DNA of 64,000 nucleotides from an uncultured Nitrososphaerota archaeon (GTDB lineage: Archaea; Thermoproteota; Nitrososphaeria; Nitrososphaerales; Gagatemarchaeaceae), in NCBI GenBank assembly GCA_963703285.1, contig OY969807.1, positions 2,048,001 through 2,112,000 of the forward strand, read 5' to 3'. Shown here one piece after another: positions 8,389-43,447 of the stretch. The position numbers and the translations under genes are program-made. Within the stretch, counting starts at the first letter, position 1, and each line of letters opens with the position of its first letter. The notes beneath the pieces were generated by a model. The model saw nothing but the letters and a program-made list of their open reading frames with translations. It searched no databases and was not told where the DNA came from.

Positions 8389-8394
8389 GTCCGG

Positions 8395-9594: not shown

Positions 9595-10229
9595 CCATTT
9601 CAGGCCGCCATCTAGACGGGAAGAATCAAAGCTCCCCCAACTGGAACAGGGGACTCGAACAGAAGACTGAAGCAGGTGGTCTCCCTGGCCTCTAGACTCA
9701 TCTCTCAGTCTTCGGAGCCAGTCTTGGTATTTGGGAGTTCTTCCAATTGTCTTATCGACTGCGTCAAGTTTCACTCAATCTTCGACGCCCAGAACATTCC
9801 GAGCTGAAACAAAGGACGGTCGACGAAGTCCTCCCGCCGCAGAGGGGCTCCTTCCGCGCCCCAAAACTCATTTTACAGAGCTCCCAAATTTCCCAAGTTA
9901 TTGATACAAATGACTCGAAAAATTGCGTTGGCTACCCTCTTCTCCCCAATCCTATGAATATCCTTCATTTAGTAATTGCCTTTCTTGCAATTCCGGAATT
10001 CGCATAACATATGCTAGGTTGTTAAATACGTTTAATCTAACTCGTACGTGAGTTGGTGACTGCCTGAAGGGGTCCGATGGTGGAGAACCTCGCTTCAAGC
10101 CCGCTATCTTTGACTTCGATGGACCGCCAACCTCACCCGTTTCCTTCCTAGCACGGCTAGCATCAGGCCCGTCGGTCTGCGCCGCGCCCAACCTCAAGCG
10201 GGTCGAACTGGACGACGGGCAAGGACAGA

Positions 10230-13200
10230 TTGGTGAATAGAATGGATATCAAACCAGAAGCAACGGCCAACACGATAGTCCTCCCGGCTCCTAGCCAGGA
10301 GGTCCAGACGCTGCCCCCGAGGTTCATCGTCGGGCAGCTGCCGGTGACGCTCGTACAGAGCTGGGCGCCGGCGTGGTTCTATAGCGCGCTCAACTGGCTG
10401 GGCAAGTCGTACTACGACGCGAGCAACGTCCAGCAGAGCTTCAACGACTACATGGTAGGGTCGGACGTCGACCCCTACTCGAGCCTCGGCTCCACGCGCC
10501 TCTTCGTCATAACGAAGCTCCAAGAAATATTCCAGCTCACCCTGGCCTCGGACTCGAGCTCCAACGCGCCGCTCTCTGGCGGGACCACGTATCCGAACAC
10601 CGATGAAGGGATCCTGCAGATGTACCAGGCCCTCTCGGCGAGCCCGATCTTCTCCTCGGTGAACTACTGCTACGTCCCGGGCCGTCTCGCCGCCGACGTC
10701 AACCCCGACGCCTTCGCGACGTTCGCGGTCGCCGAGGGCCTCGAGAGCGGCTACGACACGGCCTCCGGGCTGAGGACCATCGTTCTCGGCTCTGCCGTCT
10801 CCCAGGTGGTCCCCCTCGACGACTTCCTCCAGACCCAGAACGAGCAGATCTACGACGACAGCCCCGTCATAGTGCCGCTCGTCACGGCCCTGGTCTACGA
10901 CTTGACCCAGTACAACACGGTGGGGGCTACGACCTTCCTCCTCCCCGTCTACTACACCCGCGACCAGGTCTCGCCGGCTACCTACTACGTCAGCCGGCTG
11001 GGGTCGACCACGACGGTGGCCGGCCAGACCGCTAACTGCGGCCAGACGGCGCTCTTTCCGGGCGGCGCCGGCTACAGCGGCGCGAGCGCGACCTCGCTGA
11101 CCGTGCAGACGACCTCGGTCGTCTCCTCGGGGGGAGAGACCTTCACCACCTACAACTTCGGGACGGCGACGGCTGTGACGACCTCGACCCTGAGCCCGAG
11201 CGTGGAGACGGGCGTGATGTCGCTGACCTACTCCGGTTCCTCGCCCTCCACCATCTTCGCCGCCCAGGGGATAATCGGCTTCTACCGCGATTCGTCCTGG
11301 ACCACGAGCCTCGGCGTGCCCATCTACGACTTCGGGGCGCAGAACTCGTCATTCACCGCCGCGACGCAGGCGCTCGTCACGCCCGCCACAGTCTACGACC
11401 CCACGAATCCCTTCCTCAACGGCGGGTCTCTGCCGAACGTCATCCACAAGCTGACCCAGGCAGCGTACGTCTACTCGACGGACGAGCTGGTCTCGATACT
11501 CGATACCGCCATCGCGGCGAAGGACACCGACAACGGCGCCGGGCTCAGCGTGACGACGGCCGCGCTCGAATTCGACATGAGCTCCAACCCCGCGGCTTCA
11601 GTCGTAGACCAGCTCACGGTGCCGGTGACCGTTACGGTAACTACGACTCCGACGCCAGTGAAGCTTCCGACATTCAACGCGACGACGGTGGCCGTCAATG
11701 AAGCGGGAATCAGCGCTGCGGCGGCCCAGCCCGCGACCGGCGTGGCGGTCCTGGCGCAGTCCCCCGCGAACGCGTCCGTCGCGCCAAAGACCATGGATGT
11801 GGCCGCGCCCGCAAAGTCAGCGGCGATGGCGGCCGCCCCGACGGCGACCATCAGCAAGACGCTGGCCACCGTCAACCTCTCGCAGTTAATCGGCTCCGGC
11901 GCAAGCGCCCCCGGCCAGAGCCAGCTCGGCCCGGTGACGGTCCAGGTCGGACTGAGCGCGTCCATCCCGCGCGAGGCGCTCAGCGGCACGGGCATCACGG
12001 GCATCGAGATAGGCACGGCGTTCCCCCAGCAGCCGCTCGGGGCCGGCGCGGCGTTCGAGGCGGTGACCGCGGGCATGGCTTTCAACCTGATGGACCGCCA
12101 CAGCGCGACCCCGTCTCTGGCTCCGGTCGACCTCGCGACCTCGACGGCCGGCTACGCGTTCGCCGACGGGGTGTACTACGTGCTCTCGCTCACAGGGGCG
12201 AACCTGACGGTCCGCGGTTCCGACGATTCGTCCGCCACCAGCGAACCCACCCTGCCGGGCTCCCCCGACCCCAGCCACACCTACGTCGGGGCGATGGTCT
12301 ACTCCTCATCCACGGCGTCCGTCACCCTCTACCCCCTGCTGCAGCTCACGCTGCCGGCACCGAGCGTGGGCTCTCACGGCGTCCTCCAGGGCGGGATCTA
12401 CAGCGTCCGCCTGACCTTCGGTGACGCGAACAGCCAGTACGACGTCGTCGACTCGACGCAGACGGTCCTTGACTCCAACGTCACCGTCCCCAACCCCAAG
12501 CCCGCCGATGGCTCGAACCCGCAGTCGGGCGACCTCTACTTCGGCAGCTTCATGGGCGGGGCGAGCGTGATGACCGTCTGGTCGGTCCCCGTCTTCCTCG
12601 CCGTGGAACCGTCGCAGCTGCCGGGCGCCAGCTACAACGGGACCATGACACTGGACGCCCTGACGAGCGGCCTCCCCGGCTACCAGCTTCAGATCACCGA
12701 CAGCTCGCTCTTCGTCTACTCGAACATCAACGTCGACACCGACGCCATCGGCTCGGTCAGCGCCAAGAACGTCTACCTTGCGAGCGCTGTAATCAACTCC
12801 TCCCCCGACGACCTCTCCCCGGAGGCCTTCGCGCCCTCCAAGCTCGTGATGGGGCTAGTCCGCCAGGCCCAGATGGGGACGGTCCTCAAGTACGTCTTCG
12901 TGCCCGAGGACGACAGCGTCGTCATCGGCGGGACGCGCTACATGCTGAGCGTCATCAACCTGGGGGACGTCGACGGCGACCCCAACTCCCGACCCTATCC
13001 CCCCGTCTACTGGCCCCAGATGCAGTACTGGCAGTTCGCCAACCGCCACGACCCGTACCTCGCCGTCGAGTACACCGGAGCGACCGAGCAGGACCGCATC
13101 AGCCAGGCTCAGTCCGACACGGTCCGGATCGGCCTTCAGACGTCCCAGGCGCAGGAGCCGATGCAGATGTACCTGGACACCGCCGGGATGACGGTCTGGC

Positions 13201-16200
13201 CGATCTACCCGTTTCCCTACGCGACGTCCACGCAGAGCGTCGACCAGGGGAAGCTAAACGTCATCACGAGCACCATCCGGCAGATCCTCGCAACGACCTT
13301 TCCTACGACGGCCCCGTTCGCCGCTGGCCCCCTGGACGCGGAGCAGATCACCCTTCCCGCCTCGCTGCAGCAGAACAACCCGTTCACCGCCGGGACGGCG
13401 GCCACGACGAACCCGAACCCCTCCGCCAGCGACGCCATCACCCAGCTGGTGTCGGAGCCCTCCACCACCGGCCTTGAGGTGATGAACCTCAGCCCCGACC
13501 TCGTCGCCAACACGTCCGTCACGGACATCGGCGCGCGGCAGAGCCTCCAAGACCTGCAGTCCCAGCAGACGGACGCCAGCCTGTCCAGCGGCAAGAGCCT
13601 CGCCCCCCAGGTCGACGTCGTGCAGGTTCGCTCCACCACCGCGGCTGCGACGACGGCCGCCGTAGCGTTCGGCCGCCAGTTCCAGCCCATCTTCGGGTTC
13701 TCCGTCTACAACCCCGGCACCGGCGAGGCCTACATCGTCGAGGTGGTCGACGCGGACCTGGACATCCCGGACCAGCTCCCCGACCCCACCAAGAACGTGA
13801 CCTACGACCCCTACTACGTCCGCGTGGTCTTCCTCAGCAACCTTACCTGCTACAACATGTCGATAATCGTCCCGTCGTTGGTCCGCGACCAGTACCAGTA
13901 CTTCGCCCATCAGGGGACCTCGTACCAGAACCTGCTCAGCAAGACGAACGAGCTCGACATCGGATACGTCTACTCCCTCTACGACAACAGCAACAACTTC
14001 GACAGCCTGAACTTCAGCCCCTATCCCGCCACCACACAGCTCTCGTCGCTCAGCCCGTCGGAGACCTACCTCTACACCAACTTCCCATACTCCACCAAGC
14101 AGACCACTCTCTTCAGCCCGACGTCCCTCTTCGCGAGCTACTCGACCTTCGTGGAGCCGGTCGCGACAGGGGAGACCGCGACAATGGACGAGAGGTTGGA
14201 GGTTGAGAAGTCCGTGGCGTTCGACGCCTCCAAGATCTCCTTCATCCGATTCGCATCGCCCCCTGCGTACTTCGTCTGCAGGCGCGAGAACTGGAACGCG
14301 GACTGCCACCTGATGCAGGCCACGAATCCCGAGGGAACTTCGATCTACCTGGCGTTCGGAGGCGGAGACCTCGTGCCCTTCAGGCTGGACGACACCGTCA
14401 CGGTCGACAAGCGCCAGCCCGCGCACATGTACGAGTTCACCTACACCTTCGCCGACCAGCAGTACGACTCGGCGCAGACGATCTCGGTGGCAAACACGCC
14501 CTACGTCGTCGCCGTCGCTACCAACAACGGTGTCACATCGTACACCAACTTCTCGATCAACTCCACTTCGGGCACGGCCGACATCCAGATAGGCGGCAAC
14601 GCGACGCTGCAGTTCCCCACGCAGGTCTACATCGTCGGCGAGGCGAGCACCACGCTGACCTCGATTTCAGATATCAACCTCGCACTGGGCACCGGATTCA
14701 CCGACACCGGGGACTTCCTGAACCAGGACGCGCAGGGGAACCTGACGAATCAGGAATTCCAGGTACTCACCTACAACAACCTCGTCTACCTGATTCGGGC
14801 GGTCTCCAACGTCAAAGCGCTCGCCGCGGTAGGCGAGATCAAGATTGACAAGAAAGGCAAACGCGTGGTCGTGGCCGAAGGCGCGGTCTCGGGACTCCTG
14901 ATCGACACCTACGTCCCCGCGACGACGGGCAACCTCGCCCTGGCGCAGGGCGCGCGCTACCAGCGCAGCGGGCTGCAGTTCTTCGGGGCTTCCTACACGC
15001 CCACGACGATGCAGGACAGCCTCGACACGCTCAACTTCACCAGCATCACGGGTGGCACGTTCTACGCGCCGACTATCTTCATCCCCATCCCCGAGCTCGA
15101 CAGCACCAAGGGCTTCGTCGCCAACCTCTCCGACTACCTCGGGCAGCAGATCTGGACGTTCATCTATCCCGAGATCGTGGCGCAGCCAGACACCACGGTC
15201 AACGGCGTCAAGTATCCGAATGGCTACAACCTGGACGGCGACGGGAAACCGATACTCAGCCTTCAGAAGCTCCACTTCGTCTACGACCCCATAGCCGTCA
15301 TGTTCACCACCAACGACCTGGCGCACAAGTACCCTCTGCTCCCCAAGGTGCAGATCCTCGCCCTGACCAACGGACAGATTCAGGAGGGCATCTGCTGGCG
15401 CACCGCCAACGTCCAGCCCCAGCGCCTTCCCCCGGCGAACATCCTCGCCCAGCAGATCCTCACGGAGGGCCTAGTGATGGACGCGACCAACATCGTCTAC
15501 TCCTCCCACAACCGCTCCGTCATCACCGCGGCCGGCCCCGGCTACATGGGCATGTCAGTCAACAGCTTCGTCTCCGTCTCAGGGGTCGTCTACAACATCG
15601 AGGAGGGTGCCCTCTCCGAGTCGACCGACCAGACCGATCAGGGCCTCATATCGGCCGTCGCCTCCGTCTCGAACATGCTCGTCTCAGTGCTCTTCGACTA
15701 CGACAACAACGACCTCGGCACCCTGACCGACTACGACGAGCGCCTTTCGACGAAGGGCGTCGTCTTCCTCAACGGTTACCTGAGCGCCACGGGCTACAGC
15801 TTCTCGAGCCCCGACCACTTCGACGTCAACGACGTCCTCCCGTCCCAGGTCCCGCTGCTCGAGGAGGTCGCCGACATCTTCGGCTGGGACGTGGCCTTCT
15901 ACAACATGGACGCCAGCCTGCCTCGTCAGTTCTGGAGCCTGACCTACGACACCTTCACTGCGCCGGGGCTGCCGAACTACACCCCCAACGTCCCGCCACC
16001 GCCCGTGGACCCGACCTTCTTCAACCGCACCCGTTCGCTCGTCCTCAGCCTGCAGAACCCTGTCCGTCCCACCCAGCTCGGTCTAATGGACACCTACAAC
16101 TCCGTCGTCTCGGCCAACCTCCACCTTGAGAACGGCGTCACCGGCTCCATCTTCCTCAGCAAGAAGGCGGACCGCGACATCGCCTCGATTGGGTCCAACG

Positions 16201-17085
16201 CGACCGAGCAGGGGGCCAACCAGGTCTACGGACTCCCGACGAAATACGACTTCTTCATCTTCTCCAAGGACCACTACTGGACCCTGAAGGGCGCCTACTT
16301 CGAGCTCGTCGACAACGGCTACGCGATGTGCCTGGTGGACGACGGCTCGGGGACGGGGACCAAGGTGGCCAAGTACTACATCGACCAGGACGGCAACTAC
16401 AATGAGCTGCTCAGCTACGTAATTTATACGCCGAACGGGGGCATCATCGAGTCCTCAACCTTCGCGGTCAAGGTGACGCTTGGCGCGCCGGCCAACCCGG
16501 GCGCGACCCCGGCGATCCCAGAGACGCCAAACAACGTCAACCCCCAGGACGTCGTGGCGCAGATAAATAAGGTCTCGAACCTGGTCTACGCCGCGTTCGG
16601 GCCCTCCTCCCCGGGACAGCCGCCGGCGTACATCCCCATCCAGGCCGTCGGCGGCGAGGTGCAGGCCACCCCGATCCTCGGTCCGCCGGGCTTCAACGGG
16701 TACGCGCTGAACGTACTAGGCGCGAACAGCCAGCCGGTCCAGATCTCGCAGATATTCTCCGCCAACGTCGCCTACAACATCGCCGGTCCGACGACCATCG
16801 TCCCCTACAGCCAGAAGAGCGAAAAGGCGGTGCCGTTCTACGGCTCAATCTCGCACGGGCTGGACAAGATGGTCCCCGTCGCAGTCCTCAGGTCGGCGGA
16901 CCTGACCTCGTACATACCGGCTACGACAGTCCCAGCAGGGCCCACAACGGGATTGTACGGGGGGAATGGGCTTGGCGGACTCATCGGAACGCCCTTCAGC
17001 TTTGCATTCCAGGGGTCCGGAGCAATCCCGCCCGCCATCGCCAGCAACCCGACCCCGGGGACGACGATGAAGGCGGACAGCCAGA
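10230..17085 (+). CDS. Giant beta-rich protein, N-terminal part (coding signal ends at the frameshift)
   Basis: C/G third-position bias and S/T/Y/N-rich sequence up to ...TTMKADSQ; afterwards the frame becomes R/H/G-rich shadow; start TTG 10230 or ATG 10242. Confidence 0.85.
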
Positions 17086-20000
17086 ATCTTCTACACATTC
17101 AACGCCGTGAGCGCCACGGTCATGGACTCCACGGGCAAGTCGGCGAGCGCCAGCGGCGGCCAGTACTTCGTCGACACGACGGACCCGGCGAACCCCATCT
17201 ACGGTGTCGTCACCCTCCCCAAGTTCCTCTTCAACGGGAACACTTACACGGTCAACCTGAGCACAACGCTCTCCGACGGCGTGACCTCCAAGTACACGCT
17301 GGTCGTCGGTGGGCAGAGCTTCCCCTTCAGCTCCGGCAACCAGGTCACGGCCGACAAGACGACGTTCACCTTCAACAAGGCCGTCGGACAGATCTACACC
17401 GTCACCTACGCGGCGGTCGACGCACCCGCCGGGAGCGAGGCTCCAACGCCGATCACCTTGACACCCTTCTCCATAGCCGCGGGCGGCCTCCCCATCGCGA
17501 TCATCGACGTCTTCAACAACCCGGGAGGGCTGAAGGACATCCTCCTCGGCGTGATAGGACGGCTGTACACCTACGACCCGATCAACGCCCTCGTCACCGT
17601 CAGCGAAGGGGCCACCACGACGGTTGTCCCCCTCATGACGGGAATAACGGTCACATCGAACAGCGGCTACGGCTACGTGATCAGCATCAACGACAACGTC
17701 TACACCGTCAACGACGGCCCAACCTATCCGTACCCCGCCTCCACGATCGGCACGCCGGCCGCTTACCCCCTGATGACGGCGCCGCAGATGTTCACGATGG
17801 GCGGGAACTTCTACACCTTCGACCAGAGCGGCGGGAACTACGTCAGCGTCACGGGCAACGGCCAGACCTACCCCGTCAACCTCTACCAGTTCTCGATCAA
17901 CGGCGAGGTATACATCATCAACACCAACGTCCAGCCAAACACCGTCGTGGGCGGAGGGAACGTCTACACGATGGAGGCGTCCAACACCCAGTTCGAACTC
18001 AACGGGGTGCAGTACACCATCATCATGAAGACCTCGCTCAGCGGTGCGACGGTCTCCGGGCAGTTCAACATCTCTCAGGGGAATGTCGTCGTAATCGAGG
18101 ACTACGTCTACCAACTCGACACGCTCAACGGGCAGATCGTAGGGAACGGCACGACGTACCCACTGACCACCTCGGGGTTCACGTACACGATCACGACCTC
18201 GAACAACAGCTTCACCGTGACAACCGAGCCGAACGCGGCGACGGTCACGATAGGGGGCGTGGTCTATCTAATCAACAACACCACGGTGGTCGCCGACGGC
18301 ATCACCTACCCCATCCTCGTGTACAGGAGCTTCGTCGACGGCGGGACGACGTTCGACATCGGGCTGGAAGGCACGGTCTCCGTCCCTCCGCCGCTCTCGC
18401 TGACGGGGTCCGCGCCCTACACCGGGGCGACCTTCACCGACGGTTCCGAGACCTACACAGTGAACGAGTCGGCCGCCTTCGACGGCACGTCCTACTACCT
18501 GATGACCGGGACGCCGCCCCAGTTCGCCACGGCCGGCCTGACCTACACGGTCCGGACCGACGGCGTCTCCATCGCCGCAGGGCCTGCGCCGACGTTCATC
18601 GTCGACGCGACCGGGCCGCTATCTCCCAACCAGTTCACCTTCGGGGCTGAGACGATCTACTTCGGGCGGACCACCGACGTGGCCGCGTTCGACGGGACGA
18701 ACTTCTTCGCCATCGCGGAAAACGAGTTCACCGACACCAACACCGGACTCACCTACAGCATCAGCGGGAACACCGCGGTCAACCAGGGCAACAGCTATGA
18801 GATCTACAGCAACCTGGGCCAGAGTCCGTACTTCGAGGTGCCGGGCGGCCCCACCTACTACGTCAACGTCGCCGTCGCGGATTCGGGCACGGCGACGGGG
18901 AACATCTACAGCGTCTTCCCCATCAACGGCGGGGTCTTCACCATCCCGCTCGTCTACACCATCACGGTCTCGGGCAGCACCGTGACGGTGAGCGCGTCGA
19001 CCTTCACGGGCGGCCCGACCGCGACGTCCACCCTGACCGCGGCCGCCGGGTCGCTTACCGGCGGATACTTCACCGACCCGGTCACGAAGATCACCTACAC
19101 CTGCGTCGTCGACGCCGGCGTCGTTACCTTCGTGGACTCGAACAACGCGGTCTATCCCTACCCAGCGCCCAGCACGACGAACACATTCGTGGCCTCCGTG
19201 GTCGTCACCACCGCGGTCACCCTGGCCGTCGACAGCGAGGCGACGCCCGATGTCTACCCGGTCCTCAGCAACCAGTTCATCGTCGGGACGACGACCTACG
19301 CGGTCAACGTGTCGGTCGCGTACGAGAACGCCTCGGGGCCCTACTTCCCGATGGTCAACGGCCAGTTCATCGTGCCGAGCACCCCTCCCGTCTCGAACCT
19401 GGCATACGCGGTGCAGGGCGGGTCGGTCACCAAGGGGTATGTGATTTCGGCGGACGACGAGTTCTCCGCCGACGGGAACGTCGTCTACACGGTCAACGAC
19501 GTCAACGTCGTCAGGGCGTCGAACCAGGCCACGCTCACCGGCACAGCCCCGAACCAGACCCTCACATATGGATCGTTCACCTACACGCTCGACACCACGA
19601 CCTCGCTAGCGGCACTGGAGCCCGCGGGGCTCACCTACGACACGAGCACCAGCCAGTTCACCGTGTCCTACAACGGCGTCTCCGTGACCTACACGGTCGG
19701 ATCCCAGACCGTCACAGACAACCGTCATCCTGCGGACACCTTCCCGTCGACCGTCTCTGGAAGTCAGGTCACGTTCACCGACACGGTCAGCGGCATCACC
19801 TTCTCCTTCGACGACAGCGGGGACAACCAGATCAGCGTCGGGTTCCCCTACACCAACCAGTTCTTCGTGGACCTCCTCAACGGCATCACATACTATGTCG
19901 ACGGGACCACCAGCACCGTCGAGGCCATCTCCTACGTCCCGGAGACCACGCAGTACGGCTTCGTAGCCGCCAACGGCCAGACCTACCTGATCCACTACAA

Positions 20001-23000
20001 CGACGTGGGCGTCGTCTTCCCCGTCATCTCGGGGGCCAACGTCAACGCCGGCATCGCCACCGTCGGCTCGGACACCTTCACGGTCAACATCGACCAGGTC
20101 CAGCCGTCGTCGGGTGCCGCTGGCATCCCCGTCAACCTCAACTCCTTCGAGATCAACGGCAACCTCTACACCATCACGGGGACGCCGACCGGGACGGACT
20201 ACTCGGCGTGCAAGGTCGTCGGGGACGCGATCACGCCCAAGAACTTCACCTCGGCGAACACGTTCGTCCTCACCGACCCGACGGTCACCTACACGCTGCA
20301 GCTCAACTCGGCGAACCTCCCCGCGGCGGTGGTCGCAACCTTCGCTGTCAGGCCTAGCCAAGACCTGATTGTCGTCAACGACGACGTCTACGTCGTCACC
20401 TACAACACGACGACCACCGGGTCGCTCCTGGGCCAGGGCCAGGCATCGATCGCTATCACCAACTCGAGCTTCACCCTGACCAACCCCTTCGACTCGACGA
20501 AGGCGAAGTTCGTCTTCGACGACCTCGACATCTACGACGCCGGCTCGGTGGTCGGGCAGTTCGCCGTCTACCAGATGCCCACGTTCTTCATCGGCAACGC
20601 CACCTACACGCTGAACCCTGTCGACCTGCTGGTGACGGACAACAACGACCGGCCGTACCCGTTGCTCCCGAGCCCGATGATGTTCAGCATAAACGGCTTC
20701 AACTACGTCATCGACACGAACCGCACGCCGCACGCAATCGTCGGCAACGGCAACGTCTCTCCTCTCTCGACGGACGTCACGGTCCAAAACGGGCTGCCGG
20801 TACCCAACTCCACTTTCACGCTCAACGGCCTCGTCTACGCCTACGTCGAGGACACTACGCACAACCTCCTCGCGGTAACGGGGACGAAGAGCTACATGAT
20901 TGCCCAGCCGGCGCTGACCTTCAAACTGGATTCCAGCCTCGTGTTCACCATAAGCACGACGCCTCCGGCCGCTGGGAACTACGTAGGGACCATGGCCCCG
21001 ATCGGGACAATCACCGCCGCGGGCCCGCTGACCCTCAACCTCTACGCTGGGACGCCGGAGTCGGGGAACGCCGACTTCTTCACCTACAAGAACGTGCTAT
21101 ACACACTGGTAGAGTCCGAGGGCGTCTACATCGCCGTGCAGAAGACCTACACGGTCTACGCGTCCACGCCGACCGCCACCCAGCAGCAACTCGCGGTCTT
21201 CGACCTCGCCGGCACAACGTACATGGTGACCGACGGGACGACAGCGGGCACAGCGACCCCAGCTGGGATAAACCCCGGGACCCTGTGGGCGGCCACGTCA
21301 ATCTCGGCGACCCCCCCCGAGACGCAGTTCGGCCTCGTCTACGGGTTCACAGCCCAGCCCATAAGCGTCTCGCAGTCCGCCACCACCCAGGTCTTCCAGT
21401 TCGTGGTTAGCACCACCGTCAGCAGCATCAGTACCACCACCAGCAGCGGCAGCACCAGCACCGGCAGCACCAGCACCACCACGGTCAACACGCTCTACGA
21501 CATCGTCTACACGCCCGGAAGCAACGCGAACGTGGTCAAAGTCGACGTCCCCGACTTCCTACCGACCTTCACCCAGAGCTGGCCATTCAACTTCCTCACA
21601 TCCTATCCGCTGACGTTCGAGACGGGAGGGTACAACGCGTTCACGACCTTCGTCTCCGAGACGTCGACCCCCAGCGAGAGCTTCGCGGGGGCCTACAGGA
21701 CTCCGGTGATCTCCACCGACGGCGCGGTCGACTCCATGCTGGGCACCGAGGGCGACTTCAGCCTGGAGTTCTGGCACTCTCTCCCGCTGACGGCGGTCAA
21801 CGACTACCACCCGTTCACCTACTATGCTAGTAACCAGAACCCCCTCGTCTACTACGTGGACGTAGACTTCTTCAACGGCTACAACATCTTCGTCCGGATC
21901 AACAACACGGTCATGCAGGCCGTGACCACGCCCCCCGTCTTCACATCCCGATGGCGCCACTTCGCCCTCACCTACTCCCAGCCCTACGTGATGCTCTGCC
22001 TGGGGGCGGGCTTCGAGGTCAAGGACGGGACGAACTACAACTTCAACCGCAACTTCAGCATCGCCATGACCTTCAGCGTCACAGACGTGAACACGCAGCA
22101 GGGACTCCTCTACAAGGGCACCGCGTCCTCCATCACCTCGCCCGAGCTCAGCTTCTCGTACCAGGTCGGCGTCTCGGGGGGTAACGTGACCTTCCAGCTG
22201 ACGGACACTTCGCTGACGGACGGTCAGCCTACCCCAAGTACCATCTTCCAGGGACCATCGATCAAGGCCAAGACCTTCTACCAGGTGATCATCGTCAAGC
22301 AGACGACGACCACATCGGGCAGCACCAACTCCGACGGTACGACGGACCCCTACGGGCAGCCCTTCGACGTCAGCGAGCTGACACCAGCTACGACGGGTGG
22401 GACGAGCGCGACCATGACGGCACCGCCGACCTCGGGCAAGGCGCCCGTCACGTTCTCCGATGTCAAGGGCACCGGAAAGACACCGAAGCTGGACTCGCTC
22501 ATGACGGCGATCGGGGCGGCCCAGACCGGGCAGAGCTACTCGGTCTCCATCTCGGTCCGCACCGTCAACGACGACGGCGGCTTCGGCCAGTGGACGACCG
22601 TCAATCTGACGCAAGCCGTGACCAGCGACGCCGGGCTCGCGGTGAACAACACAGGATCCGCGGCCCTGTTGATAGGTCAGGCCTATGACACCTCGGGAAT
22701 CTTCTGGCCCATGGGTTCATCGGATGGCCTTGTGGGGAACATCCAGAACGTCTACCTGTTCAACGGTGCGATCAACCCTCAGGGTATCAACACAGCCGCC
22801 GGGCTGGTCGATATCTCGAGCGCGACCTCGAACGATCTCATCAAAGCCGGCCTCGTCGGCTACTGGCCCGCGCAGTACGACCCGAACGGCGTAGTGAACA
22901 ACACCGTCGACCCGGACGGCGTCGCCGTCTCCAGTAACATGTTCCTCGCCAAGCTCGCCCCGCTCAAGGGCCAGGAGCTCCAGGCGACGAGCCTGTACAT

Positions 23001-26000
23001 CGACGGATACTCCATGCCCCTGGAGCTCGTGTCCGGCAGCGCGATCCCTTCCTCGATGGTCCCGTACCCCGGCGGTTCCTCGCTCCTCGAGTTCAACGCA
23101 GGCGCCTACAAGCTCGAGGAGATCAGCATGTGGAGCATGTGCCGCCAGCAATACCAGGTCCTTGACGACATGTTCGGGCGCCTCATCCCGACCAACGAGC
23201 CGTCACTTGTCCTGTACCTGAGCGCGTCCTTCCAGGTCCAGGCGATCGACGCCCCGATCCTCCCGATGAGCAAGTACATCGATGACGTGGTCGTCAAGAA
23301 CGCGGTCACCTTGGTCGACCCCGTGACGTTCTCGCCGGCATCCCTGGACCTGGTCGGCTCCCCTGACGTGGGGACGTGCGGCCCGCTGGTCACACCAAAC
23401 CTGTACACCCCGCCCGGCGTTGCGCTGACCGTCTGCGACACGGTACCGTACATGACCACCTACTCCATCACGCTGAACAGCGTGACGCAGACGCTCGCGG
23501 GGGAGATCAACGAGGCGTACGTCTACGTCAACAACTCCGTGCTCACCCTCTACGCCGGGAAGATGGTCGGAGAACTGGTCCTCACTTGGGTGTCTCAGGT
23601 TCAGGGCGACGTCCAGCTCATGGGGTACGTCGAGGGCGCCCCGCCGGCCCCGATGGCCAACCTTACCAACAAGTCCTCGTACGCAGGCGCAACCTCGGTC
23701 ACTTTCACTATGCCGACGTCCGTCAGCCTGAAGTACCAGAACTCGAACGATTTCTCGAATGAGGTAGCCTGGAATATCTCCGACGGCATAGGCGTCAAGT
23801 TCGGCATCGCCGCGGACTTCGCCCCCTTCGGATTCGGCATACAGGCCGACAAGGCAATTCTGGACGTCAGTTTCGACGCAACAGAAGGGGGTGACATTTC
23901 GGACAAGACCACCGAGAGCGAGTCGCAGCTCACATCATCGAACAACGTGCAGGAGTCGTACAAGTACACGGTGAAGATGGAGGGGACGCTCGGTCCCTTC
24001 ACAGGGGACCTATTCATGGCGAGTCTGAACACGCTCACCACGCCGTCCACCACCGTAGGAGTCTCCGCCTCCAAGACCGCCATCCTCCCCAACCCGAACC
24101 TGGGCGGCTTCACGACATCAAACCCACCCGCTCCCCTGCCGAAGTCCGGCGTGACCGAGGAGAAGTTCGGGCAACGGATGTACACCCCCTCGCCCTACGG
24201 CCAGGCCTTCGTAATCTCGCAGACGCTCGACGTCTACCAGCAGACGCTGCTCCAGACCAACACGGTCTATGGTTACGTACAGGTACCGAACTCACAGATT
24301 CCCCCTGACCTGAACATCGTCTCCTTCAGGCTCAACAGCAGCTACATCCGGCCAGGGTGCCTCGACGGCGTCATCGGGTACGTCTACAACCCCGCGAGCC
24401 TGCCGACGGGCGCGCAGACCTACACGACCTCGACGGGCGAGATGCAGGTCCTCTACGACGGGAACTTCTCGCAGGGGGAGGTCGGCAGCGACGCGAGCTA
24501 CATGCAGGTCGTAGAGGCGTACCAGATGAAGAAGCAGATCGACCAGGAGACCTTTACCGCCATCGCCGCCTATCAGACGGCCTACAACAAGCAGGGCCTC
24601 CCGGATGACACGAGCCTGCTGCCCCCTCTGGACTTCTACGACGAGTACGTCTGGTCATCGCGGGGCGCCACGCAGGAGGTAAAGCACACCTATTCGACCT
24701 CGTACGAAGAGGTGTATACGACGGAGACTCTAAGCAAGGTGTCCGCCAAGGTCACCCTGAACGCGAAGCTCTATGGCGCGTGCATCACCTGGATGGACCT
24801 GAAGGGCAGCTGGGAGAAGACGATAAAGAGCACGAACAAGTACATCTACACCACCAACAGCAGCACCTCCTTCGACGTCACCGCCTCTTTCGACGGCATC
24901 GAGAACGACACCCAGATGCGGTACGCCTCCAACAACGACGCCCACTTCGTGATGAACAACAACTCGATGTTCAACCCGAACAACCAGAGCGGCCTGAACC
25001 TCATCATCGGGTCCGACGGGCTCGTCTACAACATCGTCCCCTCCGTCTCCTCGGGCGCCGGCCTGCCCCTCTCCAACAACATCGACACCAGCATGACGTT
25101 CACCCAGCCCCAGCCCTCGTACACGTCGGGGAACGCAACGGGGTTGACAGGCAACTTGGAGCCATACGACCGCCCCGGCAAGACGAACCTCTTCCGCACT
25201 TACGCGTTCTTCCTGCAGCCCACCCCTCAGAACGGCGAGGACTTCTGGAACACCGTGATCGACCGCGTATGGATGGCAAACAGCCCCGACCCGGACGCGG
25301 TGGCGTTGAACGCGGTGAAGAACAACCCCTCCGTCCCCTGGCGTCTGCTCTACCGGGTAACCTACTCTGAGCGCTTCCTCCCGCCCATCTCGACCGAGGC
25401 GGCCGTGGTCCCCCAGATCACTCCGGTCATGGCGGTCCCAGTCCTGAACGCGGCTTCCGACTTCCTCTTCACGGCGCCCGGGACCACGCCTGTCCCACCC
25501 CACAACCCGGCGAACGACATCGAGGCCAACATCGTCCTCGCAGCTCCCACAGCCAATGGCGCGAGCGCTGGGACGGTCCCGACTACAGGTTCCGGCGCGG
25601 GCCAGCCGATCCTTCCCAACAACGTGATCCCGTTCGACCTTGTCAAGCCCCCGACCCAGGCGATCGTGAACTGGGGCGACACCAACAATGCGAAGCTGCT
25701 CGGCCAGCTGATTACCTCCGTCCTCGGGCTGAACGTGCTCGCGATGTCGACGCAGGTACTTCCGGGGTCGACGCTGGTCTCCCAGGTGATGGACCCCGCG
25801 AGCGGAGGGGTGCTGTACAGCATCTACACCGATCCGAACGGCCTGACGGTGAACGTCCCGACGAACTCCGGAATAACCGTCTATCAGGACGTAAATGGCA
25901 ATCCCATCCAGTACTACGACGGCAAGGAGTTCCACTCGCTCCAGGCCGACTACATCCCGACGACCGACGGGACTGTGATGTACTACATCCAGCCGCCCTC

Positions 26001-26484
26001 AAAGTACGACCAGAGCGCGTTCAACCTCGTCGGCGACTACGACCTCTTCGGCCACCCGGGCGACCAGTGGCGCTACTACCTCGTCTCCGGGATGAGCGCC
26101 AACATGACCTCGGAACCGACCGTCACGGGCTACGGTCCCTTCCTCTCCTCGACCGGGGCGTCGCCGTACACCGGGTTCACGATCGCCTCTTCGCAGCACG
26201 CCGCCGATGGCTCCAACCACGTGAAGGGGTACGTCCTCGTCCAGGGCGTCCTCCAGTGGCCCAACCTCAACAGCAACGCCGAGACGTTCGCGGACGTGCA
26301 GGTCTACAAGTCGATGAGCCTTCTCGATACATTCCCGATCGGTGACCCAGAGGTGCTCACCTCGTTCTTGGAGGCGCAGTATCCCGGCGCGCCGTTCACG
26401 GGCAACGACGACATCGACCAGGTCTTCGCGAGGAACGTAGTGTCGTACTTCAACGCCTCACAGCAGGCACTGATTCCCGAGTAG
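17086..26484 (+). CDS. Giant beta-rich protein, C-terminal part with LamG/concanavalin A-like domains
   Basis: Frame open from 17071 reads IFYTFNAVSATVMD...; LamG motifs DFSLEFW, WRHFALTY, LYIDG, EEISMWS, LVGYWP. Confidence 0.88.
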   Translation: MFYTFNAVSATVMDSTGKSASASGGQYFVDTTDPANPIYGVVTLPKFLFNGNTYTVNLSTTLSDGVTSKYTLVVGGQSFPFSSGNQVTADKTTFTFNKAVGQIYTVTYAAVDAPAGSEAPTPITLTPFSIAAGGLPIAIIDVFNNPGGLKDILLGVIGRLYTYDPINALVTVSEGATTTVVPLMTGITVTSNSGYGYVISINDNVYTVNDGPTYPYPASTIGTPAAYPLMTAPQMFTMGGNFYTFDQSGGNYVSVTGNGQTYPVNLYQFSINGEVYIINTNVQPNTVVGGGNVYTMEASNTQFELNGVQYTIIMKTSLSGATVSGQFNISQGNVVVIEDYVYQLDTLNGQIVGNGTTYPLTTSGFTYTITTSNNSFTVTTEPNAATVTIGGVVYLINNTTVVADGITYPILVYRSFVDGGTTFDIGLEGTVSVPPPLSLTGSAPYTGATFTDGSETYTVNESAAFDGTSYYLMTGTPPQFATAGLTYTVRTDGVSIAAGPAPTFIVDATGPLSPNQFTFGAETIYFGRTTDVAAFDGTNFFAIAENEFTDTNTGLTYSISGNTAVNQGNSYEIYSNLGQSPYFEVPGGPTYYVNVAVADSGTATGNIYSVFPINGGVFTIPLVYTITVSGSTVTVSASTFTGGPTATSTLTAAAGSLTGGYFTDPVTKITYTCVVDAGVVTFVDSNNAVYPYPAPSTTNTFVASVVVTTAVTLAVDSEATPDVYPVLSNQFIVGTTTYAVNVSVAYENASGPYFPMVNGQFIVPSTPPVSNLAYAVQGGSVTKGYVISADDEFSADGNVVYTVNDVNVVRASNQATLTGTAPNQTLTYGSFTYTLDTTTSLAALEPAGLTYDTSTSQFTVSYNGVSVTYTVGSQTVTDNRHPADTFPSTVSGSQVTFTDTVSGITFSFDDSGDNQISVGFPYTNQFFVDLLNGITYYVDGTTSTVEAISYVPETTQYGFVAANGQTYLIHYNDVGVVFPVISGANVNAGIATVGSDTFTVNIDQVQPSSGAAGIPVNLNSFEINGNLYTITGTPTGTDYSACKVVGDAITPKNFTSANTFVLTDPTVTYTLQLNSANLPAAVVATFAVRPSQDLIVVNDDVYVVTYNTTTTGSLLGQGQASIAITNSSFTLTNPFDSTKAKFVFDDLDIYDAGSVVGQFAVYQMPTFFIGNATYTLNPVDLLVTDNNDRPYPLLPSPMMFSINGFNYVIDTNRTPHAIVGNGNVSPLSTDVTVQNGLPVPNSTFTLNGLVYAYVEDTTHNLLAVTGTKSYMIAQPALTFKLDSSLVFTISTTPPAAGNYVGTMAPIGTITAAGPLTLNLYAGTPESGNADFFTYKNVLYTLVESEGVYIAVQKTYTVYASTPTATQQQLAVFDLAGTTYMVTDGTTAGTATPAGINPGTLWAATSISATPPETQFGLVYGFTAQPISVSQSATTQVFQFVVSTTVSSISTTTSSGSTSTGSTSTTTVNTLYDIVYTPGSNANVVKVDVPDFLPTFTQSWPFNFLTSYPLTFETGGYNAFTTFVSETSTPSESFAGAYRTPVISTDGAVDSMLGTEGDFSLEFWHSLPLTAVNDYHPFTYYASNQNPLVYYVDVDFFNGYNIFVRINNTVMQAVTTPPVFTSRWRHFALTYSQPYVMLCLGAGFEVKDGTNYNFNRNFSIAMTFSVTDVNTQQGLLYKGTASSITSPELSFSYQVGVSGGNVTFQLTDTSLTDGQPTPSTIFQGPSIKAKTFYQVIIVKQTTTTSGSTNSDGTTDPYGQPFDVSELTPATTGGTSATMTAPPTSGKAPVTFSDVKGTGKTPKLDSLMTAIGAAQTGQSYSVSISVRTVNDDGGFGQWTTVNLTQAVTSDAGLAVNNTGSAALLIGQAYDTSGIFWPMGSSDGLVGNIQNVYLFNGAINPQGINTAAGLVDISSATSNDLIKAGLVGYWPAQYDPNGVVNNTVDPDGVAVSSNMFLAKLAPLKGQELQATSLYIDGYSMPLELVSGSAIPSSMVPYPGGSSLLEFNAGAYKLEEISMWSMCRQQYQVLDDMFGRLIPTNEPSLVLYLSASFQVQAIDAPILPMSKYIDDVVVKNAVTLVDPVTFSPASLDLVGSPDVGTCGPLVTPNLYTPPGVALTVCDTVPYMTTYSITLNSVTQTLAGEINEAYVYVNNSVLTLYAGKMVGELVLTWVSQVQGDVQLMGYVEGAPPAPMANLTNKSSYAGATSVTFTMPTSVSLKYQNSNDFSNEVAWNISDGIGVKFGIAADFAPFGFGIQADKAILDVSFDATEGGDISDKTTESESQLTSSNNVQESYKYTVKMEGTLGPFTGDLFMASLNTLTTPSTTVGVSASKTAILPNPNLGGFTTSNPPAPLPKSGVTEEKFGQRMYTPSPYGQAFVISQTLDVYQQTLLQTNTVYGYVQVPNSQIPPDLNIVSFRLNSSYIRPGCLDGVIGYVYNPASLPTGAQTYTTSTGEMQVLYDGNFSQGEVGSDASYMQVVEAYQMKKQIDQETFTAIAAYQTAYNKQGLPDDTSLLPPLDFYDEYVWSSRGATQEVKHTYSTSYEEVYTTETLSKVSAKVTLNAKLYGACITWMDLKGSWEKTIKSTNKYIYTTNSSTSFDVTASFDGIENDTQMRYASNNDAHFVMNNNSMFNPNNQSGLNLIIGSDGLVYNIVPSVSSGAGLPLSNNIDTSMTFTQPQPSYTSGNATGLTGNLEPYDRPGKTNLFRTYAFFLQPTPQNGEDFWNTVIDRVWMANSPDPDAVALNAVKNNPSVPWRLLYRVTYSERFLPPISTEAAVVPQITPVMAVPVLNAASDFLFTAPGTTPVPPHNPANDIEANIVLAAPTANGASAGTVPTTGSGAGQPILPNNVIPFDLVKPPTQAIVNWGDTNNAKLLGQLITSVLGLNVLAMSTQVLPGSTLVSQVMDPASGGVLYSIYTDPNGLTVNVPTNSGITVYQDVNGNPIQYYDGKEFHSLQADYIPTTDGTVMYYIQPPSKYDQSAFNLVGDYDLFGHPGDQWRYYLVSGMSANMTSEPTVTGYGPFLSSTGASPYTGFTIASSQHAADGSNHVKGYVLVQGVLQWPNLNSNAETFADVQVYKSMSLLDTFPIGDPEVLTSFLEAQYPGAPFTGNDDIDQVFARNVVSYFNASQQALIPE
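21409..21483 (+). repeat. AGC/ACC microrepeat encoding a Ser/Thr linker
   Basis: STTVSSISTTTSSGSTSTGSTSTTT. Confidence 0.8.
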
Positions 26485-31651: not shown

Positions 31652-31653
31652 CT

Positions 31654-33048: not shown

Positions 33049-33215
33049 GCCCTTGGATTTGATTGTCGATATCTCATAACCCTTTCTAAGTAGGTCTCCG
33101 CAGGTCCTGACTCTCCGGTTAGCAAGGCGAACCACGATCGTGAGCAGTCCGTCGGACGGTCCATCCTGAGCGGGAAATCCCTTAAGTGTCGCCGTTTTTC
33201 GGACCCAATCTAGCG

Positions 33216-34772
33216 ATGAAGTGCAGCGAGGTGAGGGGGTTCCTTTCCGATATCTTCTTTCACAGGGAGCCCGCCCCCATCCCCCCGTTCGACCTGAACT
33301 ACCTTGTGGTCAACGGCTACGTCCAGAGCACCTCCCAGGAGGACCACGACAAGGTCGTCGCCGATGTCTCCAGGCTCACCCAGCTGACAGCCGACGTCGA
33401 CGCAGAGAGACCGGTAGAGGAGCAGGCGCTGGAGGCTCTCGCGAAGGACCAGGAGAAGGAGCACTCCTTCTTCTTCCACTTTCAGGGTAAGGACGAGAAG
33501 GATGCTCTCAGCCAGAGGATCCAGGAGGAGACGACGGCCGCCTCGGGCGAGAACGCCAAGCTAAGCTCTCTGGAGGCCAACGTGAACGCCCTGCTCCAGG
33601 AGACGAGCACCGTCGACCGGATGGTCGCCTACGGCGGAGCGTACCTCTCCCTCACCGGCGTCGGAAGCGTCGTCCTGAACGACCTGAGCGTCAGAGACTA
33701 CAGGGTCGCTGACGAGGAGTTCCCCGACTTCGTCGCCGAGACCATAGCCACCTACGCGGAGTTTCGCTCGATAGCGGACCGGGCCAGCTACTACGTCAAC
33801 CTGTTGCGGCCCCTGGCCCCGCTGATAACGGACCCCTCGACCGGGGCCGACCGCTCCCTGCCAGTGCTGTGGGGCACGGCCCTGGGTCTGGGCAAGCTGG
33901 AGGGCGACCCTTCCCAGATAGGAGAGAGAGTCACCCAGGCCCTCTCCGTCCTCCAGAGCTTCAAGTCCACCACCCCCAACAAGCTGATGGCCGCGGAGGT
34001 CATGACAGCTCTCAGCAACCAGGACATCGAGAGCCTCGGGACGGTCCTTAAGGACCTGGACCACCAGCTGAGGAGAAAGCACGTCCCGAAGGAGCTCTCG
34101 GCCGGGATTGCCGCCGCGTTGATGGCGGGGAGGCGATACGACGGTACCTATCCCATAGACACTTTCTTGGAGTTCAAGGCGGTGACCATGTCGTACGAGG
34201 CCGCGGCGGTGCTCGGGGTCATGAACCTGCCGTTCGTCGACCTTTGCGCCAAGTTCCAGTCGTTCAGGGAGCTCTTCAGCTCCTGGGGGTACACGGCGTC
34301 GGAGGACACCGAGATCGCATCTGCGTTCATGGCGATCGGCGAGCTGAGTGCGGGCGAGGTCGCGGACAAGCTCAAGTATGTGGTGCAGGAGCTGTCGAAC
34401 TACCTTGAGTATCCCTTGGTCGCAGGCGCGATACTGGCCTCGATACCCGTCTTCGAGGCCCACGAGGTCCTCGACCTCATGGAGAAGGCGGTCACCCTGC
34501 TGGAGCACTACATCTCAGGACTGGAGCAATCCGAGGTCGTCGCCCTGGCGGTCAGGATGATTCACGGGGTACGGAACGAGCTCGTCAAGCAGATCGACCC
34601 CACGGCAAAGATTGCCGAGACACCCGTCCAGTTCACCTACGGAGGTTATCCCGGCCTCTGGCTGTGGTACGTGCCCCTGATAGTATCCCACTCGGCCTAC
34701 GCCGCGACGTTCAGCGGGATGAGAGGATTCCATCCGGCTCACAGCCACGGCATCGGAGGCTTTGCGGGTTGA
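33216..34772 (+). CDS. Helical hypothetical protein (DUF4003-like repeats, His/Gly-rich tail)
   Basis: CTTAAG box upstream; coiled-coil N-terminal part; repeated AA-L-A helices; ends HPAHSHGIGGFAG. Confidence 0.8.
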   Translation: MKCSEVRGFLSDIFFHREPAPIPPFDLNYLVVNGYVQSTSQEDHDKVVADVSRLTQLTADVDAERPVEEQALEALAKDQEKEHSFFFHFQGKDEKDALSQRIQEETTAASGENAKLSSLEANVNALLQETSTVDRMVAYGGAYLSLTGVGSVVLNDLSVRDYRVADEEFPDFVAETIATYAEFRSIADRASYYVNLLRPLAPLITDPSTGADRSLPVLWGTALGLGKLEGDPSQIGERVTQALSVLQSFKSTTPNKLMAAEVMTALSNQDIESLGTVLKDLDHQLRRKHVPKELSAGIAAALMAGRRYDGTYPIDTFLEFKAVTMSYEAAAVLGVMNLPFVDLCAKFQSFRELFSSWGYTASEDTEIASAFMAIGELSAGEVADKLKYVVQELSNYLEYPLVAGAILASIPVFEAHEVLDLMEKAVTLLEHYISGLEQSEVVALAVRMIHGVRNELVKQIDPTAKIAETPVQFTYGGYPGLWLWYVPLIVSHSAYAATFSGMRGFHPAHSHGIGGFAG

Positions 34773-35878
34773 AGCTCCAGGCGTTGGGGGGTCGCGGCGA
34801 AGGCGTCTGCGGAGCATTGCTGCTGGCGCTTCTGCTCTTGTCCGCGACCGCCGTGGGCGCGCTCCACGCCTCTGCCTACACTCCGCGGGCCGGCGACAGC
34901 TTCTCCTACTCCGAGACGATGACCGTGAACAACGGTGGAGGCTCCTACTCTGGCTACACCGACCAGACCCTGGTGACGGGGACGGAGAATATGAACGGTG
35001 TGAGCGGAGGGATCGTCTCATCCTCCTATGACTACTCCTACCAGTACTCGAGCAACCAGGGGAGCTCGACCTCGGGCTCCAGCTCGGGACCGTACATGTG
35101 GTCGGCGGACAACTTCACCTACGTGAACGGGACGGACGACCAGGTCGGGTATACTGCGCCGATTTACGTCTGGTTCGCCATGAACGCCTCGCTCCCGGTA
35201 GGAGGCACGTTCTACTCCCTGAACACGCAGTTCACCGTGCTCTCGAAGGACTACAGCTTCCACCTGCCCGCCCTGGACGAATATGTCCAGACGATCGAGA
35301 CCGAAGGGACAGGCCAGTACCAGCGCGACGACTCGTACGGCGTCTTCTCGGCGTCGTACACCTGGTTCGAGTACTTCGACCCCTCCACCGGGTACATCGT
35401 CGGCTACAACTACGTCGAGCAGGACAGCGGCCAGGGCGCTGCCGGAAGCTTCACCTACACCGACGACCTGTACGTGACGTCCACCAGCTATCCGCTGACC
35501 CAGACGAGCGCGCCTCCCACAACCTCGACCACAACGACCAGCGGCACGGGAGTGCCGACCCTCGATTATGTGGTCGTGGGGGCCATCTTGATTGTGATCT
35601 TGCTGGTGATTGCCTACGCGACAATGCGAAGAAGAGGCAGGAGAAGCTCTCTTCCGGAGCACCCTCCGTCACCACCGCCGACCCAGCCACCAGGCCCGCC
35701 ATCCGCTCAGCCACCCGCCCCGCCTGCAGCCCCATGGGGATCCGGGATCGACCTCGGCTCGAAGCCCCCCGAACAGGTCGTGATAAGGGAGGTCGCCATG
35801 GTCAACTGCAAGTTCTGCGGCGCGCTTATCCCGACCACGGCAGAGACCTGCCCGCGCTGCGGAGCTCCGAACAAGTAG
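34769..35878 (+). CDS. Secreted, membrane-anchored protein with Pro-rich linker and C-terminal zinc ribbon
   Basis: TTG overlaps the upstream TGA; signal peptide; Y/S/T-rich ectodomain; TM followed by RRRGRR; CKFC/CPRC. Confidence 0.82.
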   Translation: MKLQALGGRGEGVCGALLLALLLLSATAVGALHASAYTPRAGDSFSYSETMTVNNGGGSYSGYTDQTLVTGTENMNGVSGGIVSSSYDYSYQYSSNQGSSTSGSSSGPYMWSADNFTYVNGTDDQVGYTAPIYVWFAMNASLPVGGTFYSLNTQFTVLSKDYSFHLPALDEYVQTIETEGTGQYQRDDSYGVFSASYTWFEYFDPSTGYIVGYNYVEQDSGQGAAGSFTYTDDLYVTSTSYPLTQTSAPPTTSTTTTSGTGVPTLDYVVVGAILIVILLVIAYATMRRRGRRSSLPEHPPSPPPTQPPGPPSAQPPAPPAAPWGSGIDLGSKPPEQVVIREVAMVNCKFCGALIPTTAETCPRCGAPNK

Positions 35879-35903
35879 GCGACGGCATGGTGGAGACCTA
35901 GCG

Positions 35904-43295: not shown

Positions 43296-43447
43296 CCGCT
43301 AGAGACACAGGAGTTCGTCGTGCCTGGGGCCGGCCGTGAATCCGCCAACTATCACAAGGACGTGGGCCGGCAGGGGTCCTTGGCCCCCGAAGAAGAACCG
43401 CTCCTGGAACTACAAGTTAAAAGGCGGCCGTTTCAACAGTTCCACCG

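Follow-up and report, generated by a model that had tools for sequence, protein, structure and literature searches.

A 5,413-codon giant gene in a Nitrososphaerota archaeon, split by one surplus base, belongs to an orphan family scattered across bacterial phyla

Giant RTX adhesins of the LapA, SiiE and MpIBP type are proteins of ~5,000 amino acids (aa) that have no N-terminal signal peptide and are acidic, beta-rich and rich in T, S, V and N. Tc complexes and large clostridial toxins are likewise very large and without an export signal, being released by lysis-type routes, and they spread horizontally and carry a lectin-like binding part in some cases. Polymorphic toxins of the Rhs and contact-dependent inhibition (CDI) type combine a long beta-rich body with horizontal spread, and archaea encode giant, Ser/Thr-rich, acidic surface proteins such as halomucin and the PGF-CTERM S-layer glycoproteins. 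Here, we describe a gene that shares features with each of these groups, in a 64,000-nucleotide stretch of the genome of an uncultured Nitrososphaerota archaeon (assembly GCA_963703285.1, contig OY969807.1, positions 2,048,001 to 2,112,000), hereafter the window. Coordinates are positions in the window, and residues of the C-terminal part of the protein are counted from ATC 17086. The assembly carries the gene as two overlapping reading frames; the true gene is a single one, running from ATG 10242 to the stop at 26484 minus one A, with 5,413 codons and a predicted product of ~574 kDa (Table 1).

Two long plus-strand open reading frames (ORFs) overlapped in different frames, ORF1 at 10230..18650 (2,806 aa) and a second at 17107..26484 (3,125 aa). 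A preliminary description of this DNA had read them as a single gene for a giant protein of ~5,400 aa, broken by one base, with ORF1 coding-like up to ADSQ and shadow sequence thereafter, and with the other frame open from 17071 and continuing with ATC TTC TAC. Translation confirmed the reading of ORF1 and the sequence that of the other frame. ORF1 was protein-like (T/S/V/N-rich and K/R-poor) as far as ...TPGTTMKADSQ, ending with CAG at 17082-17084, and past 17084 its frame gave ~520 R/H/G-rich codons, like an out-of-frame read of G+C-rich DNA. No homologue aligned with this shadow tail, and alignments of the N-terminal part stopped at residues 2283-2285. The second frame was open after TGA at 17068-17070 and from ATC 17086 read IFYTFNAVSATVMD..., in the same style as the first part. 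Deleting one A from the AA at 17085-17086 joined 2,285 and 3,132 codons into 5,417 codons counted from TTG 10230, as the preliminary description had it, and that arithmetic stood. The start most likely lies not at TTG 10230 but four codons further into the same frame, at ATG 10242: eleven homologues began exactly at this residue, and in the N-terminal alignment the homologues' initiator methionine fell in the ATG 10242 column. The N-terminal part agreed with the family consensus at 92% of conserved columns and concealed no out-of-frame stretch.

Homologues carried the sequence straight across the junction. A search with the C-terminal part returned 138 proteins at E ≤ 0.001, of which the best 120 were examined; excluding the window's own called product left 119 listed homologues, most of which covered the query in full at the lengths and identities given in Table 1. 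Both halves lay on one chain in 112 of the 119 (5,040-5,465 aa), so that the continuous homologues sought for a single gene were found as full-length, one-chain proteins. Alignments reached the junction from both sides in 111 of the 119, and 103 of these 111 had zero residues gained or lost relative to the window with the base removed; the family consensus over the junction was likewise colinear with the window's two frames. The remaining seven listed homologues began within the C-terminal part, at residues 100-976. An arrangement in two genes, with a real start at 17107, had been put forward as the alternative to a single gene; it was looked for and not found, because none of the 119 listed homologues began at the junction or at 17107, and the single gene split by one base was borne out.

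The extra A at 17085 is very probably an insertion error of the assembly and not a feature of the organism. Parts of window 16500-17700 were present in five soil-metagenome runs, four of which were compared with the window. Contigs from three of them (X1, X2 and X3; 373, 234 and 230 nucleotides (nt), with depths of 8.5, 2.5 and 2.9), representing three samples of one study, spanned the site, and each lacked one base at 17085 and was otherwise identical to the window; run X4 did not cover site 17085. Run X1 shared more of the window's words than any other run (0.70), and over 354 aligned bases its contig (depth 8.46) differed from the window in the missing base alone. This contig ended in Nextera adapter sequence and therefore came from a short-read library. 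We also checked 36 related loci, taken from species-representative genomes, for frame changes. These occurred in 12 of the 21 loci titled 'MFD....bin... contig_', from 1 up to ~25 per gene (L037), and in none of the 15 others (k141, k127, NODE, SPRUCE and bog contigs and the Dyella acidisoli isolate chromosome). In a thirteenth MFD locus (L006) the frame was open, yet hid a short compensated out-of-frame stretch. In the Microflora Danica project, according to the abstract of PMC12313526, Nanopore sequencing was applied to 154 samples of soil and sediment.

The frameshift might instead be real in the strain, where an insertion would recently have inactivated a gene that its soil neighbours keep intact. 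The assembly itself carries the base, relatives manage without the gene (only 1 of 60 has it), which makes it dispensable, and minority variants are invisible in contigs; however, the X1, X2 and X3 contigs all lack the base and are otherwise identical, and the breaks in relatives follow assembly type, not lineage. Moreover, both halves of the window gene matched the family consensus at 91-92% of well-conserved columns without a local drop, and so there is no decay in the window gene. We therefore regard a real frameshift as very unlikely. Recoding, in which programmed frameshifting would join the two frames in translation, has nothing further in its favour than the overlap of two open frames and is hardly credible, given a site (GAC AGC CAG AAT CTT, 17076-17090) without a slippery run, no shift at the junction in any of the 119 listed homologues (103 of 111 colinear) and the absence of the base from the DNA of three runs. 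Of the three causes that the preliminary description had offered, error was thus upheld by all three covering contigs, recent inactivation lost favour, and recoding fell for want of a slippery run or a shift in any homologue.

Without the surplus A, the site at 17080-17090 reads GATC. No other palindromic 4-mer was as under-represented in the genome as GATC (8,267 occurrences against 13,032 expected, a ratio of 0.63), and one idea is that the error at 17085 may have arisen in base calling and been tied to a methylated motif. A wholesale GATC-to-GAATC error was ruled out, as 8,267 GATC sites remain. A genome-wide frameshift scan based on periodicity of G+C content at third codon positions (GC3) flagged 149 places, missed the known 17085 site that served as positive control, and was discarded. 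The frameshift itself is an ordinary artefact; the gene is real and among the largest in an archaeon. At 16 kb it is a large target for indel errors, as the breaks in 12 of 21 public long-read-style metagenome-assembled genome (MAG) loci illustrate, and the window's own called product was a fragment of 2,601 aa. Gene calls in such assemblies report fragments, and giant genes are therefore under-counted; for long genes, calls in MFD-type assemblies are unreliable.

The giant gene is under purifying selection, with a ratio of nonsynonymous to synonymous substitution rates (dN/dS) of 0.09-0.20 in nine pairs (dS 0.18-1.17). Mean column identity was 63% among 23 full-length members and 66% among 9 members, with hundreds of invariant residues over the whole length and a few indel-rich linkers interrupting the family alignment. 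Variable linkers lie at residues ~482-586, 971-1073 and 1260-1330 of the N-terminal part and ~1731-1813, 2188-2211 and 2464-2490 of the C-terminal part. The family is thinly scattered over at least six bacterial phyla and one archaeal genus; its bacterial members, from soil and peat, belong above all to Acidobacteriota, and also to Alpha- and Gammaproteobacteria, Bacteroidota, Eremiobacterota/Vulcanimicrobiota and Actinomycetota. By title, the 36 loci belonged mostly to Acidobacteriota, the others to Alphaproteobacteria (Stellaceae, Reyranella and Acetobacteraceae), Dyella, Massilia, Puia, Candidatus Cybelea/Vulcanimicrobiota, Acidimicrobiaceae and one Nitrososphaerota archaeon; this other archaeal member is another species of the window's genus. 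The gene was found in at least 1 of 300 other genomes of the family of genome G061, a floor set by a stricter filter, and in none of 200 in the family of Dyella. No neighbour was conserved across the 36 loci and the window, the largest flanking cluster (6 of 37 loci) being a generic outer-membrane barrel, and the 76 flanking ORFs of 20 loci were, by Pfam, unrelated housekeeping genes and a single ISL3 transposase fragment. DNA similarity between loci started at ~10361 and ended at the stop codon, and therefore the loci share neither flanks nor terminal repeats.

A maximum-likelihood tree was built from 1,177 C-terminal columns and 33 rows (L018, L033 and L037 were omitted for their many frameshifts and L036 for cover). 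It contained well-supported cross-phylum clades of Massilia with an Acidobacteriota MAG (95), Reyranella with Acidimicrobiaceae (96), Cybelea with Acidobacteriaceae and Puia (99), and Dyella within an Acidobacteriaceae clade (100). The window copy grouped with three Acidobacteriaceae copies, not strongly supported (88). The two archaeal copies were not sisters in the free tree and lie in different chromosomal contexts; an approximately unbiased (AU) test does not reject their monophyly (p 0.138). The tree cuts across taxonomy, and the gene, with neither a neighbouring gene nor flanking DNA conserved, travels alone. One Acidobacteriaceae MAG has two divergent copies, each on its own contig: L028, 65% identical to the window, and L033, 57% identical; the first tree placed them in separate clades. 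One carrier is cultured, Dyella acidisoli 4MZ03, with an intact 5,456-codon frame, which makes the question accessible at the bench. The family is not described in the titles or abstracts found on giant proteins or genes in Acidobacteria, archaea, metagenomes or Dyella acidisoli.

Both parts of the window protein were without a Pfam, NCBIfam, PADLOC or PHROGs family, and piecewise scans of 13-19 homologues (E ≤ 1 to 5) gave no accepted family except Laminin_G_3 (PF13385), of the concanavalin A-like lectin/glucanase superfamily. Matches to Laminin_G_3 at E ≤ 1 came from 6 of the 18 orthologous middle segments, the best at 2.9e-8. The Dyella orthologue scored 25.4 bits and the window 19.6 bits at the same place and over the same model positions (13/14-88/89), both below the cut-off of 27.6. 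We take residues ~1552-1730 of the C-terminal part to be a lectin-like module, homologous to Laminin_G_3 by position, although the window's segment does not pass by itself. The module makes up ~3% of the protein, and the other ~5,200 residues are without a match. Profile searches of five parts against PDB gave nothing below E 0.2 and chance-level rows only (the Pappalysin-1 N-terminal module at E 0.2, further along than the Laminin_G_3 match; retinol-binding protein at E 0.34; RNase A at E 1.1). A profile of the N-terminal 1,074 positions returned 194 matches among 1.84 billion representative proteins, and the best 150 of the 194 look like family members or fragments. Neither the window segment nor a stored fragment had an entry in ESM Atlas. 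The most conserved stretch of the C-terminal region, 24916-25095 (residues 2611-2670, DTQMRYASNNDAHFVMN...GSDGLVYNIVPSV), is a candidate functional core. Pox_VERT_large appeared below threshold in 15 of 19 C-terminal segments (16.6 bits, cut-off 25), over this one conserved stretch of 60 residues, and was taken as chance. An internal duplication was considered from weak BLAST rows between the N-terminal and central parts (E 3e-5) and rejected; hhalign gave only 0.5% probability, so these rows were judged compositional, and no internal repeats were found by BLAST self-comparison or by hhalign of the N-terminal against the central part.

The protein is T/S/V/N/G-rich, with T+S at 19-22%, K at 2.0%, R at 1.0-1.9%, D+E+K+R at ~11% and an isoelectric point (pI) of 4.1-4.3. 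These values agree with the S/T/Y/N/V-rich, low-K/R composition given in the preliminary description, whose statement that no signal peptide, transmembrane (TM) anchor or PGF-CTERM tail is visible also held under crude hydropathy and motif tests. The first 45 residues varied across homologues in both length and sequence and were without a hydrophobic core or twin arginine, so that this crude test gave no signal peptide, and an equally crude test for membrane helices gave none, the highest 19-residue Kyte-Doolittle mean being 1.69. The only PGF lay at residue 2149 of the N-terminal part, and the C-terminus, ...YFNASQQALIPE, was not hydrophobic. Walker A, HExxH, CxxC, RTX (GG.G.D) and LPXTG motifs were absent from both parts.

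A make-up that is ~11% charged, T/S/N/V-rich and K/R-poor is unusual for cytoplasmic proteins, and together with a lectin-type module it has the look of extracellular or surface beta-proteins. We tentatively propose that the product may be a glycan-binding extracellular beta-structure. This large structure would work extracellularly or at the cell surface, its Laminin_G_3-type module would bind glycan, and its role would be that of an adhesin, matrix or fibre. Exit would not depend on a dedicated gene next door and could proceed by lysis, in vesicles or through a general system of the host. Such independence from the host envelope would allow a solo gene to work in Gram-negatives, an actinobacterium and an archaeon; the solo gene is intact in hosts with three kinds of envelope, which argues that the protein needs no host-specific partner. 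Part of the preliminary description's proposal, a giant adhesin or toxin with its export route left open, is thus retained: composition and the Laminin_G_3 matches in 6 of 18 segments fit an extracellular protein, whereas the searches matched neither an adhesin nor a toxin family and turned up no route of export.

Giant size without an export signal and transfer as a solo gene would also suit a self-contained toxin, released by lysis and acting against grazers (protists and nematodes), fungi or rival microbes, with the lectin-like module binding the target and amphipathic beta-hairpins inserting in its membrane. Defence would be useful in any host, and hence such a toxin could spread across phyla and domains. 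Alternating patterns occur at residues ~2200-2260 and ~2530-2600 of the C-terminal part, near indel-rich loops, and 30-residue hairpins were seen only in a model with a predicted local distance difference test score (pLDDT) of ~31. We nevertheless consider a toxin unlikely, as toxin, pore and enzyme families all went unmatched, the surroundings contain neither a lysis cassette nor an immunity gene, the C-terminus is conserved and not polymorphic, and the hairpins come from an unreliable model. Less likely still is a giant protein with a structural or enzymatic role inside the cell, which would not have to be exported. It would agree with the lack of a signal peptide, TM segment or anchor, with function in hosts of quite different envelopes and with hundreds of invariant residues along the whole length, but not with the charge-poor, T/S/N/V-rich and K/R-poor composition, the lack of a Walker A, HExxH or CxxC motif, or a lectin-type module typical of extracellular proteins. 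A further, speculative idea, which we put forward with much reserve, is that the 574-kDa protein might be a self-sufficient unit, a bare 16-kb gene moving between phyla and into archaea in soil and peat and working without a dedicated export, anchoring, chaperone or immunity partner. If so, it would represent a new class of host-independent giant extracellular machine, either an anti-grazer toxin or a protein of a matrix or fibre, and would benefit its host whatever the type of envelope.

Overall, we conclude with good confidence that the window contains one gene for an acidic, beta-rich protein of 5,413 residues, split by an assembly error, that belongs to a solo, horizontally scattered family; its product may be extracellular. 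Several points weigh against this interpretation. The evidence on the split consists of contigs, not raw reads, at depths of 2.5-8.5 and from one study, and one run may be the window's source sample; contigs drop rare variants, so a minority frameshifted strain could exist. The 'MFD.bin.' loci are presumed to be long-read assemblies from their titles and the PMC12313526 abstract only. Most hosts are MAGs, and some taxon labels could be binning errors; counter to this, several of the copies are on long contigs (0.7-5.9 Mb), among neighbouring genes typical of the host. GC3 of the gene tracked the G+C content of its flanks or host (r 0.76, n = 19, rows non-independent), with a value of 0.90 for the window gene against 0.80-0.90 for host genes, and the transfers are therefore not very recent. 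The window's own segment was not matched to PF13385 at E ≤ 1 by hmmscan, and hhalign comparison of profiles with three true Laminin_G_3 domains gave 0.2% probability. Neither a signal peptide, a TM segment nor a sorting motif was found by crude tests, nor a neighbouring secretion gene in the 36 loci and the window. AlphaFold2 models of 22882-26481 and 13485-17084 (1,200 aa each, from 19-sequence alignments) had mean pLDDT values of 30.9 and 31.9 and were unusable; with such shallow alignments (60-72% identity) and such long pieces, these models are uninformative on the fold.

The host is a soil archaeon, with small subunit (SSU) rRNA (1486.6 bits, full length) and large subunit (LSU) rRNA best matched by archaeal Rfam models. 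Its genome, a single contig of 2,252,123 bp with a completeness of 96%, has one copy of the giant gene. Among the 60 relatives searched (completeness 54-100%), the gene was present in 1 of 22 of the same genus, 0 of 14 from other genera of the family and 0 of 24 from other families of the order. The one carrier, the Nitrososphaerota MAG G009 (locus L005), has flanks that map to quite different places in the window genome. The upstream ABC operon has orthologues in three congeneric genomes (G001, G009 and G014), with a DNA identity of 83-85%, and in each of them similarity stops at window 9595-9598. This DrrA/DrrB-type operon has no adjoining giant gene in G001 and G014, and in G009 it lies on a different contig from the giant gene. 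In G001, 5.4 kb of unrelated DNA follows the operon before synteny returns at window 57.6-62.7 kb; the gap (9595-57640) therefore places the giant gene at the edge of a ~48-kb non-syntenic stretch. No empty site is definable, because homology with the three congeners, once broken off at 9595-9598, returns at differing points. The ~48-kb stretch, which may be an island or a rearrangement, includes the giant gene, the ParB-family gene and ordinary metabolic genes (GcvPA/PB), and there is no tRNA gene in the window. Neither the 108-aa ORF nor the ParB-family gene was kept beside the giant gene at other loci.

Two further pairs of long same-strand ORFs overlap in different frames in the window, 43336..44253 with 43448..44752 and 34664..35878 with 35098..35901; the overlaps may reflect shadow ORFs, as G+C-rich DNA produces them, or additional indel errors. 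In the genome of the window (G000), 1883521-1883748 (L056) and 2041661-2041888 (L058) had the same weak Laminin_G_3 score (13.1 bits) and the same three in-frame stops, which suggests a repeated, possibly degenerate element, one copy of which lies ~6 kb before the window.

Table 1. Features of the giant gene and its surroundings, in window coordinates.
Feature	Position	Strand	Basis or remark
PadR-type regulator and DrrA/DrrB-type ABC-2 transporter	6692-9594		Upstream of the giant gene
Upstream intergenic region, AT-rich at ~9880-10040	9595..10241	+	Starts exactly where congeneric synteny ends
N-terminal 2,281 codons of the giant gene	10242..17084	+	Translation; aligns with homologue residues ~1-2309 at 50-69% identity
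One surplus A (either A of AA 17085-17086), splitting the frame	17085..17085	+	Sequence, short-read contigs, homologue colinearity
C-terminal 3,132 codons and stop	17086..26484	+	Translation; homologues of 5,220-5,465 aa cover 100% at 55-71% identity
ORF1 shadow tail, open but non-coding in that frame	17087..18650	+	R/H/G-rich translation
Putative first half of Laminin_G_3-type module (C-terminal part, residues ~1552-1631)	21739..21978	+	PF13385, 19.6 bits (gathering cut-off 27.6)
108-aa membrane ORF, Ser-rich start, hydrophobic stretches	26600-26926		Directly downstream
ParB/RepB/Spo0J-family gene	26996-27910		Downstream; E 4e-29
Two glycine dehydrogenase subunits (GcvPA/PB)	30047-33135	-	Downstream

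Set against the systems described at the outset, the window protein resembles the giant RTX adhesins in size, acidity, composition and lack of a signal peptide, but has neither their GGxGxD repeats nor tandem immunoglobulin-like or cadherin-like repeats, and no adjacent type I secretion system (T1SS) genes (ABC, membrane fusion protein (MFP) or outer-membrane); its family, moreover, also occurs in an archaeon. From the Tc complexes and large clostridial toxins it differs in that the window protein and 13-19 homologues were without TcA/TcB/TcC, RHS/YD or glucosyltransferase Pfam domains, with no lysis or holin gene nearby and no sign of a catalytic domain in the window family. Unlike in polymorphic toxins, the C-terminal 900 residues of the family were conserved at 61-79% in all loci, and no conserved downstream immunity ORF was present. 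Halomucin and the PGF-CTERM glycoproteins share the archaeal host, the giant size and the acidic, Ser/Thr-rich make-up, whereas the window protein has no signal peptide, PGF-CTERM or TM tail, has its nearest relatives in bacteria and is absent in 59 of 60 relatives of its host. The most fitting description is that of an orphan family of giant proteins with a single lectin-type module, a family that fails every tested defining feature of the RTX adhesins and the signal-less toxins. The reading frame and start are now fixed, from ATG 10242 to 26484 minus one A, and what sets this gene apart is 50-72% identity with bacterial copies along its whole length, purifying selection and solo spread across domains.

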